Under the pieces are notes generated by a model. It saw only the letters and a program-made list of their open reading frames with translations. It was not told the origin of the DNA and did not search any database. Made by a program: the position numbers and the translations under genes. This document shows, piece after piece, positions 58,895-63,990 of a DNA stretch of 64,000 bases (position 1 is the stretch's first letter; every line of letters starts with the position of its first letter). The stretch comes from a virus (Duplodnaviria > Heunggongvirae > Uroviricota > Caudoviricetes), in IMG/VR virus record IMGVR_UViG_2718218304_000001, positions 50,160-114,159 of that record. The stretch is one strand, 5' to 3'.

Positions 58895-59677
58895 TTACAC
58901 ATGAGCGCCGTAAATTGCCCCAACTTTAGTCCAAGTTGGAGCATTACCAGTAACAGCTTTACCAGCTGCTCCGCCGTTATATTCTGTACCGTTACCTTGA
59001 GTATTACATCTTCCTCCAGCAGCACCGACATTACCACCCGAACCGCCTGTATATGCACTAAGAGACCCCTCACCAACAGATCCTTTACCAGGAGCGGAAA
59101 TAGTACCAGCAGTTGCACCGGAACTCATATGAGAGGAAGACCCACCAGCACCGAATGGGCAACCACCGCCACCACCAAATATTAGTTTACCCCTGTTACC
59201 GCCGCCACCGCCGCCACCACCTCCAGCGATTGCACCATTATTCGTAATACGCAAGCGTGTACCGATGCCATTATTAATTGCGTTACCACCAGCAGCACCG
59301 GCAGCGTTACTACCACCATTGCCACCGCGTCCATAGACAGTCACACCTGCGTTGATTACAAGGCTGATATAAGAGTTGGTAAGTGAACTCGGGAAATCTA
59401 AACATGGCACGCCGCTACTGGACGACACCAGATCCCCTGTAATGGTAACAACGACTGGCGTCGCCCCCTGGGATTTTAAATAGTTGATCAGTGTGTCTTT
59501 GTTGTAGTTATGATTCGCACCGATGCTGTACTGAACTTCTTTAGATCGCCCGGCCATTTGAGACATTGAACCAGCCGCTGGCAGTTGCACCGCCGTTCGA
59601 GCCGCACTCATCCATCTCTGGCCTGTCACACTGACAGCCGAAGACCCAATCCAACCGGGAACACCGACAATTGGCAC
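58895..59677 (-). CDS. glycine-rich tail fibre protein (distal fibre / receptor-binding partner)
   Basis: Track ORF 58895..59737; GTG at 59677 follows AAGGAG; long Gly-rich repeats (GGGGGGGGGN..., GGSGGNVGAAGG) typical of phage fibre tips. Confidence 0.55.
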   Translation of the reverse strand: MPIVGVPGWIGSSAVSVTGQRWMSAARTAVQLPAAGSMSQMAGRSKEVQYSIGANHNYNKDTLINYLKSQGATPVVVTITGDLVSSSSGVPCLDFPSSLTNSYISLVINAGVTVYGRGGNGGSNAAGAAGGNAINNGIGTRLRITNNGAIAGGGGGGGGGNRGKLIFGGGGGCPFGAGGSSSHMSSGATAGTISAPGKGSVGEGSLSAYTGGSGGNVGAAGGRCNTQGNGTEYNGGAAGKAVTGNAPTWTKVGAIYGAHV

Positions 59678-59742
59678 ATCTAATCTCCTTTTTGATGTGA
59701 ATATCCTGAATGGTGAGGGTGGCCCCTCACCATTCACCTTGA

Positions 59743-62700: not shown

Positions 62701-63990
62701 AGTTTTGCTCTGAGATGCTGCCGTCGCACTGCCTGCCGCCTCTGTTGCTTTCGTGGATGCCGTCGTGGCACTGCCCTTCGCTGCTGACGCCTGTCTGGTC
62801 GCCTCATCTTTTGAAGCAGACGCAGATGATGCCGATGACGCCGCCGAACTGGCGGACGATGCGGCAGCCGTTTTTGAGGATTCTGCGCTGGTTTCCGACG
62901 CTTTCGCGTTCGTTTCGGATGTCTTCGCTGCGGAAGCAGACCTCGCTGCTGCGCTGGCCTGTTCAGTGGCTTCGCCAGCCTTCGTTGTGGCTGTTGAAGC
63001 AGACGATGCGGCACTTTCTGCCGATTTTCCGGCGGCGGTGGCACTGGCTGAGGCCTGCCCGGCACTTGTTGACGCGGCACTGGCAGACGACGCAGCCGCT
63101 GTTTTTGAGCCTGCCGCAGCTGAGGCGCTCTGTCCCGCTGCCGTCTCAGAAGACCTGGCGTTCGTCTCGGACGTTTTTGCCGCCTTCGCGGAATTTCCTG
63201 CCGCCGTTGCCGAGGAAGCTGCGCTACTGGCGCTCAAGGATGCGTTCGTTTCTGATGATTTCGCTGCCTCTTTTGAGGCCGCCGCATCCCGGGCTGAGGT
63301 GGCAGCTTCTGACGCTTTCGTGGTCGCGGTGGATGCAGAAGTGGCTGCTGATTGTTGTGACGCTGCAGCATTCGTTTCAGATTTTTTCGCAGCAGTTGCA
63401 CTCGCACTTGCGGCACTTTGTGAGGATGCCGCAGCGGATGCACTTTGAGACGCTTGAGAGGCTTTTTCTCCAGCGGTATTGGCGCTTTCTGCTGCTGCGG
63501 CAGCACTGGCCGCCGCCTCACGAGCTTTGTCACCAGCGGCATCAATCGCGTCAGTGTTATTTTTATACCACTCAACGTTTTCGTTGTGCTCGTTGACGAT
63601 CTGCATCAGCGGCTTAACGGCCACTTCTGTACCGTCTTCACGCTCGATTGTCACCTCATCCAGCGCAGTCAACCAACTGCGCATGGACTTGGAATCAGCC
63701 GACATGCGCGACATTAGCGCAGTAAAGCGCGCGCTAAACTGTGTTAAGTCGCCTTCATAGGTCGTAATGATTCGGCACGGAACTTCAGACTGAGTTTCGC
63801 CGGTATAAGGTTCTGAGAGAACAATGTTCGTATCACTGGTTACGCGCTTGATCTCATACAGCTTATTGTCGGGGCCAATGACGATCATCCCCGGCAACAC
63901 ACCATTAGCTGTTACGTTCCAGGCTGTCCCTGCCCCAACCAGAGTATTGCTACCCTGTGTAAATGTGATAGTACCTTCCCTGTACCACAT
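59743..63990 (-). CDS. large tail fibre protein with C-terminal intramolecular chaperone (peptidase S74) domain
   Basis: 1415 aa; ~250-aa Ala/Ser/Thr-rich low-complexity tract; repeated GNQNTTGNAATATKLQTAR units; C-terminal ...SDRRSKRNIRKIERALDKLEQIEGVLY resembles the endosialidase chaperone domain. Confidence 0.75.
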   Translation of the reverse strand: MWYREGTITFTQGSNTLVGAGTAWNVTANGVLPGMIVIGPDNKLYEIKRVTSDTNIVLSEPYTGETQSEVPCRIITTYEGDLTQFSARFTALMSRMSADSKSMRSWLTALDEVTIEREDGTEVAVKPLMQIVNEHNENVEWYKNNTDAIDAAGDKAREAAASAAAAAESANTAGEKASQASQSASAAASSQSAASASATAAKKSETNAAASQQSAATSASTATTKASEAATSARDAAASKEAAKSSETNASLSASSAASSATAAGNSAKAAKTSETNARSSETAAGQSASAAAGSKTAAASSASAASTSAGQASASATAAGKSAESAASSASTATTKAGEATEQASAAARSASAAKTSETNAKASETSAESSKTAAASSASSAASSASSASASKDEATRQASAAKGSATTASTKATEAAGSATAASQSKTAAESAATRAEAAADRAEEIAGAVAMEDASLTTKGVVKLSSAVDSTSESLAATPKAVKVVNDNANSRVPSNRKINGKALTADITLTPKDIGTLNSITMSFSGGAGWFKLATVTMPQESSVVYISLIGGAGFNVGSPHQAGISELVLRAGNGNPKGITGALWKRTAVGLTNFAWINTSGDTYDIYVEIGNYATSVNIHWDCTANATVSIYTSPTYSASKPSSVTDGVVYTMYSTHQKPTPLDIGALPTTGGTVSGPLSVTGGLTGSLNGNASTATKLQTARSIGGVGFDGSANINLPGVNTTGNQNTTGNAATATKLQTARTIGGVAFDGSANINLPGVNTAGNQNTTGNAATATKLQTARNINGVKFDGSGDININTLVSRGRVTALSGSTQGTAGIQMYEAYNNSYPTMYGNVLHMKGASASGEGEMLVGWSGTDGAHAPVYVRSRRDTSTANWSGWAQVYTTAHKPTAKDVGAAQTFSASYSTGAGNWTTAEFIAWLKERGAFEVPYWMMKGSWSYADNKIITDTGVGNICLAGAVIEVLGTEGAMTIRVTTPTTTTGGGIACAQFTYINHGSAYAPAWRRDYNTTLKPTAADVGALPISGGTMTGVLTLQNVSQPLKTQGGGILANDGNLYINKSGFAGWIDALFMKNSGGTMSGQLKIRSTDGLRIYDAAYGMIFRRSENNFYLIPTAKDQGENGDIGSLRPFYVNLTNGRVAMGNGAVVDGGLGLGVVNGLGGNSIVLGDNDTGFKQNGDGILDVYANSAHVFRFVNSTLQSLKPLSVTGDIASSAWVYANRFSINSGSGAWIDMRNQNVIFGGNAVSTNSAQALLRQDHADRKFFLGGLGNSQFGFYMINNSRTANGTDAAAYLQNDGTWVCAGNGSFNDVYIRSDRRSKRNIRKIERALDKLEQIEGVLYEIQVCGRYEQSGGLIAQDVQNVQPELVTVDHNDQSGEPRLRLNYNGVIGMLVEAVKELREEVRELKAKM

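Follow-up and report, generated by a model that had tools for sequence, protein, structure and literature searches.

A side tail fibre and gp38-type adhesin pair in an SSU5-like phage-plasmid and its T-even-like receptor-binding cassette

We have analysed a 64,000-nt stretch of a tailed-phage record (IMG/VR IMGVR_UViG_2718218304_000001, positions 50,160 to 114,159), called the window throughout, and examined a pair of adjacent genes near one of its ends. In our judgement it is very probable that the pair encodes the side tail fibre of an SSU5-like siphovirus phage-plasmid together with a separate gp38 adhesin of the OmpA type found in phages K3 and Bas45, and that the adhesin carries a cassette exchanged with a T4-like phage. 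The fibre gene (59743..63990), assigned to PHROG tail-fibre families, encodes 1415 aa followed by a stop; the gene behind it (58895..59677) encodes a gp38-type receptor-recognising adhesin of 260 aa, 23.5% of which is glycine. A preliminary description of this DNA had reported a 1415-aa fibre followed by a Gly-rich 260-aa protein, and both open reading frames (ORFs) are indeed present where it placed them. Coordinates are those of the window, residue numbers are those of the 1415-aa fibre or the 260-aa gp38, and features of the pair lie on the minus strand unless another strand is given.

The window reads as an SSU5-like phage-plasmid. In megablast searches the region matches phage SSU5, phages Cyrano and CMS-2020a and many non-mobilizable E. 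coli plasmids of 105-120 kb. Its gene order (ParA, a DUF1778/TacA and GNAT pair, spanin-like, endolysin-like, holin-like, adhesin, fibre, J-like tail protein) is the same in E. coli plasmids, in SSU5 and in Enterobacter and Citrobacter relatives, so that partition, toxin-antitoxin, lysis and tail-fibre genes are syntenic among them. About 94 nt lie between the end of the J-like tail protein gene and the fibre gene downstream of it in the homologous loci, and since the fibre adjoins this J-type central fibre in the homologues, we read it as a side fibre. The earlier assignment of the two genes to a tail-fibre pair is supported by this position directly after the J-like central tail protein, by the PHROG tail-fibre families and by matches to fibre structures in the PDB.

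The gp38-type adhesin and its receptor-binding cassette

We identify the Gly-rich protein, from its sequence and its modelled fold, as a gp38 adhesin of the T2/S16 type, which agrees with the previous suggestion that it may be the distal receptor-binding tip. It matches the Pfam families GP38 (PF05268, E = 1.7e-69, 234.4 bits) and Gp38_N (PF21721, E = 1.2e-14, 54.5 bits), each against a cutoff of 25, and PHROG 2056, annotated as 'tail fiber protein; host specificity' (E = 9e-92). It also matches the gp38 chain of phage S16 (6F45_D, E = 1.4e-46) and gp38 of phage PP01. An AlphaFold (AF2) model built from 39 homologues has a predicted local distance difference test score (pLDDT) of 90.9. Foldseek aligned this model with 6f45_D at E = 5e-20 and template modelling (TM) scores of 0.81/0.85, and with 9v85, the PP01 gp38, at TM scores of 0.75/0.88; beyond the gp38 proteins of S16 and PP01, the search against the PDB returned no fold with E below 1. 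A search of NCBIfam at E up to 1e-3 gave no match for the fibre, gp38 or the lysis genes.

The 260-aa length is that of the RefSeq annotation of homologues and of T-even gp38, which begins MAIVGVPGW, and a Shine-Dalgarno sequence, AAGGAG (59685..59690), lies 7 nt 5' of the GTG start at 59677. The ORF list contained a longer, 280-aa version beginning at a GTG at 59737. We rejected this start, which has no ribosome-binding site and sits directly upstream of an intergenic hairpin (see below), and the homologues begin MAIVGVPGW or MPIVGVPGW. Over the Gly-rich part of gp38 two further ORFs overlap within 58858-59185, one of 86 aa on the minus strand in another frame and one of 101 aa on the plus strand. 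Both lack a significant Pfam match and were judged spurious.

Residues 1-60 (59498..59677) make up the N-terminal attachment domain (PF21721), in which W9 and W22 are invariant among the 39 homologues. In S16 the gp38 tryptophans are the docking prongs (PMC7917993). The domain is highly conserved: the seven E. coli and Shigella alleles with a full N-terminus are all identical over residues 1-60 and again over residues 1-120, and the Enterobacter and Citrobacter alleles have 92-93% and 92-100% identity over these two intervals. The homologue alignment also has invariant Gly columns with variable blocks between them. The loops between the glycine motifs are of at least three types among the phage-plasmid alleles and have been swapped between alleles. 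With the 178-aa adhesin of SSU5 the window protein has the docking domain in common, at 58% identity over 38 aa. As the SSU5 fibre has a tip and chaperone that are 92-100% identical, and yet is followed by this different adhesin, we interpret the arrangement as one docking module that accepts exchangeable receptor-binding domains.

At gp38 codon 173 (59159-59161, minus strand) the window has Cys where at least 90% of the homologues have Arg, which changes GGGGGRPFG to GGGGGCPFG. A plasmid allele from Shigella sonnei has the same Cys, as do two T4-like contigs belonging to the K3 cluster, and we therefore regard it as a natural polymorphism.

The receptor-binding part of the protein points to OmpA. 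Compared with gp38 of phage Bas45 (PaulHMueller), identity is 85% overall, but it rises from 67% over residues 1-60 and 77% over residues 61-120 to 96% over residues 121-260. Compared with gp38 of phage K3 (P07876), residues 111-252 have two differences, R173C and A213S, both of which also occur in T-even members of the K3 cluster. This cluster is the 90%-identity cluster of the closest T-even homologue (P0003) and contains the gp38 proteins of both Bas45 and K3. Bas45 depends on ompA, as shown by complementation (PMC8594841), and the receptor of phage K3 is OmpA (PMC3157838). Because the loops are nearly those of these two OmpA-using phages, we predict that E. coli OmpA is the receptor of the side fibre.

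At the DNA level the similarity is sharply bounded. The receptor-binding cassette, gp38 codons 91-253 or 488 nt (58920..59407), is 100% identical to a T4-like contig. The homologue in question, P0003, is the closest one and lies on the 17.7-kb Logan contig DRR277896_48, which has the gene order of T4 (gp34-35-36-37(S74)-38-holin t-asiA-arn-motA). Between the two genes there are 0/488 mismatches in the cassette, 24/60 just 5' of it and 10/25 just 3' of it. Against gene 38 of Bas45, the 5' 120 codons have 66-68% nucleotide identity with saturated synonymous sites, and codons 121-260 are 94.5% identical, with a synonymous divergence (dS) of 0.16 and a nonsynonymous divergence (dN) of 0.022. Composition changes along the gene as well, the GC content at third codon positions (GC3) being 0.51 in codons 1-120 and 0.26 in codons 121-260; the corresponding values are 0.28 for Bas45 gp38, 0.23 for Bas45 gp37 and 0.60-0.63 for the tip and chaperone of the window's fibre. 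Five other genes of the T-even cluster have 30-37 nt differences in the cassette, yet have perfect runs of 103-214 nt with the window, and other phage-plasmid alleles are 1-10 nt away from it. Identity and composition thus place the cassette in the T-even gene pool; these two are observed, and the direction of transfer is our reading of them. For a second gp38 type (CP033097, Enterobacter, Citrobacter), the phage collection had no near-identical DNA besides that of another SSU5-like phage, and the DNA-level link to T-even phages is therefore shown for the window allele alone.

From this we infer one very recent exchange between a T4-like phage and the phage-plasmid allele, with recombination inside gene 38. 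As the phage-plasmid allele is listed in 403 blocks of an assembly collection against one T4-like contig, transfer from plasmid to phage is also possible. Conserved motifs or their vicinity are the usual sites of exchange in gene 38 according to Trojet et al., who also note that a lambda-like phage was the source of the g37/g38 end of T4, so the phenomenon is known in kind. A broader suggestion, to which we give an even chance, is that virulent T4-like phages and the resident phage-plasmids they meet in E. coli cells draw on one live pool of gp38 receptor-binding cassettes, which they swap at conserved gene-38 motifs by homologous recombination, the 488-nt identity being a snapshot of this traffic. 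In that case a temperate plasmid-prophage could gain or donate OmpA specificity essentially unchanged.

Architecture of the fibre

The ATG of the fibre gene lies 10 nt inside the window end. We take this start to be genuine, because the N-terminus MWYREGTITF is also the start of the homologues in SSU5 and in plasmids, and because PHROG 3299 aligns from position 1. Residues 1-149 (63544..63990) form an N-terminal anchor domain, with 82-90% identity to SSU5 over residues 1-120 and 70% over residues 121-160. Within it, residues 2-107 are similar to the N-terminal part of the side fibre of F2-pyocin (25ve_A, E = 4e-4). Pfam gave nothing on the N-terminal 160 aa, and the StfN collar of lambda (PDB 9MGH) was absent among the matches to the fibre N-terminus at E up to 10.

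The anchor is followed by a tract rich in Ala, Ser and Thr (residues 150-450, 62641..63543). The preliminary description had noted this tract but put it at about 250 aa; it is nearer to 300 aa, with 39% A, 24.5% S and 11% T. Periodicity and modelling indicate that it is a strict heptad coiled coil rather than mere low complexity. Ala recurs at periods of exactly 3.5 and 7.0 across the tract, with a power of 8.2 against a maximum of 2.9 in 200 shuffles, and when the tract is written in rows of 14 the register is held for about 43 heptads. A single-sequence AF2 prediction gives a continuous helix with pLDDT mostly between 78 and 89. Indels between alleles are mostly multiples of 7 aa (7, 7 and 35 relative to SSU5, and 7 relative to CP020118). 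The DNA of the tract is 87-94% identical to stf genes of lambdoid phages, and in Ur-lambda Stf residues 102-393 are described as a proximal coiled coil (PMC12617516). On the strength of the periodicity, the helix model, the multiple-of-7 indels and the likeness to Stf, we read the tract as an Ala-core coiled-coil rod, which would be trimeric and about 45 nm long.

The tract is overlapped by seven further ORFs (80-326 aa), which use other frames or the plus strand and lie in a zone covering both strands (62381..63760); comparable ORFs are called as genes in other records. Four of the seven were searched against Pfam and had no significant match. We judge the ORFs of this zone to be spurious, as had been supposed, and a by-product of a tract rich in GCN, TCN and ACN codons. 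Elsewhere in the window there is a cluster of tRNA genes (38391-39044, minus strand) for Ser-UGA, Thr-UGU, Tyr-GUA and Asn-GUU. The idea that these phage tRNAs are matched to the codon bias of the Ala/Ser/Thr tract was discarded, as codon use in the tract is not clearly skewed to the four.

The distal half is made up of several modules. Residues 451-502 (62485..62640) are similar to the proximal segment of Mu fibre protein S (5yvq_A/8ju3_A residues 105-156, domain E of about 4e-8 to 8e-8). Residues 503-695 (61906..62484) form a domain common to T-even gp37, 44% identical to Bas45 gp37 residues 794-937 and matched by PHROGs 6722 and 21552, and Pfam gave nothing on residues 495-695. GC3 is 0.36 for residues 451-700. 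These are followed by 40-aa shaft repeats, two full and one partial (residues 696-803, 61582..61905). The preliminary description had counted a tandem repeat three times. The exact 19-mer GNQNTTGNAATATKLQTAR occurs only twice, at residues 731 and 771, and it is the 9-residue core TATKLQTAR that occurs three times, at residues 701, 741 and 781 with a spacing of 40 aa. Tandem Repeats Finder reports a period of 120 nt and 2.2 copies at 61643-61903. The core is present in three copies here, in four in CP059946, which has exactly one extra 40-aa unit, and in two in SSU5. The 40-aa repeat segment alone gave nothing significant in Pfam; precomputed matches to PF03406 (Phage_fiber_2) exist on some longer alleles.

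Two Mu-like domains lie beyond the repeats. Residues 898-1026 (60913..61299) resemble a domain of Mu S/S' (8ju3_A residues 198-328, domain E = 3e-51), and residues 1223-1319 (60034..60324) form a distal domain that resembles Mu S residues 340-436 (5yvq_A residues 340-445, domain E = 8e-34) and ends in a DVYIR strand; the distal half also has a gp34/gp37-like stretch (PF21446). Residues 1281-1319 are at least 92% conserved across all phage-plasmid alleles compared. By analogy with S16 and the fPS phages (PMC7917993), residues 1223-1319 are predicted to be the tip on which gp38 docks after cleavage.

The C-terminal residues 1320-1415 (59746..60033) correspond to an intramolecular chaperone of the Peptidase_S74 family (PF13884, E = 4.8e-11, 43.2 bits against a cutoff of 22), with model positions 1-58 falling on residues 1320-1374. 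At the junction, NDVYIR-SDRRSK, Ser1320 and Lys1325 are present in Ser-x4-Lys spacing, SDRRSK aligns on SDRRIK of S16 gp37 (6F45 chain A), and DVYIRSD is invariant across the SSU5-like alleles examined. S16 gp37 is cut between the serines of DLNVS^SDRRIKK, whereby the chaperone is removed and the gp38 docking surface exposed, and gp37 of T2-like Tequatrovirus has DVYIR^SDGRLK at the cleavage place (PMC7917993). As the Pfam model starts at S1320 and the junction aligns with those of S16 and T2-like phages, we predict a cut at R1319^S1320 by an S1320/K1325 dyad that would free a 96-residue fragment. The position of the site is set by homology, and self-cleavage of the fibre would be expected by the same analogy. 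A self-cleaving S74-type chaperone had been proposed for this C-terminus, with a missing Ser-Lys dyad named as the finding that would tell against it; the dyad is there.

The fibre as a whole thus appears from these alignments as a mosaic of anchor, coiled coil, shaft repeats, Mu S/S'-like domains and S74 chaperone. It is 95% identical to the fibre of CP059946 and 61% identical to that of SSU5. When it is compared with eleven other fibres segment by segment, identity switches abruptly from at least 90% to at most 40%, at positions that differ by allele, and the last ~135 residues alone remain at least 92% identical in nearly all SSU5-like alleles. The alleles encode fibres of 1129 to 1727 aa, and in ten places examined that encode the exact gp38 protein, the called fibres range from 1217 to 1726 aa. 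The comparison of alleles across related phage-plasmids, which had been recommended as a check, therefore bears out the expectation of a host-range determinant prone to recombination: the alleles are block mosaics, the repeat number varies from 2 to 4, and the gp38 loops are swapped.

The fibre stop and gp38 are separated by a 65-nt gap, and T4-like contigs likewise have a fibre with its chaperone followed by gp38. Between the fibre stop and the gp38 ribosome-binding site, directly behind the stop, there is a perfect 13-bp hairpin with a 4-nt loop and without a U-tract (59707..59736, z = -5.1). Most alleles have this hairpin with one bulged A, in Citrobacter compensatory changes preserve it, and in AP027746 another hairpin occupies the site. 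A terminator scan gave nothing at this hairpin and only weak terminator-like sites downstream of gp38. The hairpin may tune the expression of gp38 relative to the fibre, or it may mark an mRNA end.

Proposed working of the pair and alternative explanations

Guided by the homologues, we suggest that the fibre trimerises and that its N-terminal domain anchors it at the tail tip region beside the J-like central fibre. The coiled coil, whose periodicity is observed directly, would form the proximal rod, and the distal half would consist of beta-structured shaft repeats and Mu S/S'-like knobs. The S74 chaperone would fold the trimer tip and then cut itself off between R1319 and S1320 by means of S1320 and K1325. 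Cleavage would bare the DVYIR tip, on which one gp38 could dock by its N-terminal domain with W9 and W22 as prongs, as in S16. The polyglycine sandwich of gp38, a fold that the model reproduces, would then display the hypervariable loops distally, where they would bind OmpA.

Several points weigh against this interpretation. Expression, cleavage, docking of gp38 and binding of OmpA are all carried over from homologues. In T-even phages few changes in the gp38 loops shift specificity, and the N-terminal part of the protein may contribute (Trojet et al.). The N-terminal 120 residues of the window gp38 have diverged (67-77% identity to Bas45), and residue 173 is the Cys described above where at least 90% of homologues have Arg, though two T-even members of the K3 cluster have it too. 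By analogy with lambda, where Stf speeds adsorption but is dispensable, the side fibre of a siphovirus may do no more than accelerate adsorption, the essential receptor being set by the J-like protein. SSU5, which has the same fibre tip and the different 178-aa adhesin, is reported in the title of a study to use the lipopolysaccharide core. Finally, the T4-like cassette identical to that of the window rests on a single Logan contig.

Some of these points could mean that the pair is as described but that its receptor is not OmpA, or that the side fibre is accessory, the decisive element being the gp38 N-terminus, C173, the fibre context or the J-like fibre. We consider this unlikely. Two or three loop substitutions do alter receptor use (Trojet et al.), and the host ranges of SSU5-like elements have been described as poorly understood (PMC9600943), but the loops here are those of K3 gp38 save for R173C and for A213S in a Gly-rich motif, variants that T-even members of the 90% cluster also have, and OmpA is used by two independent phages with the gp38 receptor-binding domain. 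The chance that the 488-nt identity is an assembly chimera, formed from one read set that held both a T4-like phage and the phage-plasmid, is to our mind similarly small. Such an artefact would fit with the exact cassette gene being found on that one contig alone, with the high frequency of the phage-plasmid allele, and with the distances on DRR277896_48, where the 5' part of gp38 is 4-6 nt and the cassette 30-37 nt from other T-even contigs. However, both flanks of the cassette are T4-like on the contig, so that a chimera requires two switches, and a de Bruijn assembler would normally be expected to break at such branch points. The T-even contigs that have perfect runs of 103-214 nt in common with the window moreover keep the cassette in the T-even pool regardless of a chimera, and its GC3 is T-even-like.

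That the pair is a decaying, non-functional remnant in a defective prophage-plasmid seems distinctly improbable. In several related plasmids the fibre is annotated only as fragments of 405, 494 and 1022 aa, whereas both ORFs of the window are intact, dN in the cassette is low relative to dS in the comparison with Bas45, the exact gp38 protein is widespread, and SSU5-like phage-plasmids have been induced and packaged experimentally (PMC9600943). We give least credence of all to the notion that the Gly-rich protein is a non-virion assembly chaperone like T4 gp38 or lambda Tfa and that the distal domain of the fibre binds the receptor. It is true that some database records name gp38 homologues 'distal long tail fiber assembly catalyst', and that the fibre has Mu S-like distal domains and Mu S itself binds the receptor. 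Against this, the protein falls in the adhesin family PF05268, its only PDB matches are the gp38 structures of S16 and PP01, the fibre already carries an intramolecular chaperone of its own, and the Mu S-like segment ends at about Mu residue 436-445, where the chaperone domain starts.

Genomic setting, distribution and relation to known systems

The neighbours of the side fibre and its gp38 adhesin include partition, toxin-antitoxin and lysis genes. A parA gene is found at 55584-56252 (minus strand), and a pair consisting of a DUF1778/TacA-type antitoxin and a GNAT acetyltransferase toxin at 56532-57369 (plus strand), between parA and the lysis genes. As the antitoxin is annotated with 89 aa in homologues, its start is probably an ATG at about 56571 rather than the TTG at 56532. 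The endolysin-like protein (239 aa, 57791-58510, minus strand) belongs to PHROG 873 and is annotated as an endolysin in SSU5 and as a 'membrane protein' in RefSeq; it had no Pfam match. Its C-terminus is the hydrophobic stretch IIFGIATIVVAGFIAWSQV, which suggests a membrane-anchored lysin, and the gene lies between one that is holin-like (58497-58832) and one that is spanin-like (57538-57789). In SSU5 an outer membrane protein, a membrane-associated protein and a Cor exclusion protein are encoded between the adhesin and the holin (SSU5 positions 3277-4384), a place where the window has 62 nt (58833-58894). Since SSU5 has these three extra genes and the window lacks them, the adhesin swap appears to be accompanied by loss or gain of surface and exclusion genes. 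Outside this region there is a full-length match to the Rfam cspA thermoregulator (RF01766, 27496-27914, plus strand, 185.7 bits), which implies that the phage-plasmid carries a cspA-like cold-shock gene together with its regulatory leader.

The gp38 gene is found in 33 of 5426 complete E. coli genomes, on plasmids in 32 of them, with one E. coli chromosome having a match, and in 85 PLSDB plasmids from Escherichia, Enterobacter, Citrobacter, Salmonella and Shigella. The fibre tip and chaperone occur at 80% identity or more in about 129 plasmids. Some gp38-type 'receptor-recognizing proteins' (P0015, P0017 and P0111) are encoded in assemblies of E. coli and Enterobacter kobei, on contigs 281-433 kb long; together with the chromosomal match, this suggests that gp38 adhesins may also sit in integrated prophages. 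RefSeq names the members of the pair 'tail fiber domain-containing protein' and 'receptor-recognizing protein', and the pair is an ordinary fibre-adhesin module of the T2/S16 type, of an already annotated kind, in a phage-plasmid. What is new here is the reading of the tract as a coiled coil, the precise prediction of cleavage and docking, and the assignment to the K3/Bas45 OmpA type with its 488-nt T4-like cassette. We found no paper on gp38 or OmpA in SSU5-like elements or phage-plasmids, although our coverage of the literature is incomplete and this absence is unproven.

Among Enterobacteriaceae, phage-plasmids of the SSU5 type occur commonly and are able to carry resistance genes (PMC9600943). 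Recognition of the K3 type would give a concrete receptor prediction, OmpA, for a widespread allele, and the identity of the T4-like cassette would mean that a virulent myovirus and a temperate plasmid-prophage very recently exchanged DNA at a site that governs host range. This would be of relevance to phage-therapy cocktails that use T-even adhesins, and to forecasting the spread of phage-plasmids.

Among known systems, Salmonella phage S16 (PDB 6F45) has the same two-gene logic and gene order, an S74 chaperone with SDRRxK, docking through Gp38_N with Trp prongs, and the polyglycine sandwich. It differs in that its module belongs to a T-even myovirus and not to a temperate siphovirus-type phage-plasmid, in that about 95 Mu S-like residues stand here between two stretches that align with the S16 gp37 tip, and in its loops, which are of the OmpC type in S16 and of the OmpA type (K3) here. 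The gp38 proteins of K3 and Bas45 likewise have 260 aa and near-identical receptor-binding loops, but the N-terminal 120 residues of the window protein match the phage-plasmid's own fibre tip, and the carrier is a plasmid-prophage. SSU5 (SSU5_021/SSU5_022) agrees in genome type and in the position of the pair, its anchor, coiled coil, Mu S'-like domain, tip and chaperone are homologous, and fibre residues 1161-1415 are 92-100% identical; however, its fibre has 1260 aa with two core repeats, and of its 178-aa adhesin the docking domain alone is common to both. Ur-lambda Stf is also a side fibre beside a J-type central fibre with a long proximal coiled coil. With respect to the hallmarks of a lambda-type Stf/Tfa system, a StfN collar and a downstream Tfa gene, the fibre has no detectable likeness to the collar and is followed by gp38 instead of Tfa, so that the coiled-coil tract alone is common to the two; the lambda tip, in turn, is T4 gp37-like, has Tfa as its chaperone and has OmpC specificity. 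The chaperone itself resembles the endosialidase type (PF13884) in its C-terminal position and in a Pfam model that starts at Ser, but unlike the chaperones of enzymatic tailspikes, S74 here follows a fibre tip that would later receive a separate adhesin, as in gp37 of the T2/S16 type.

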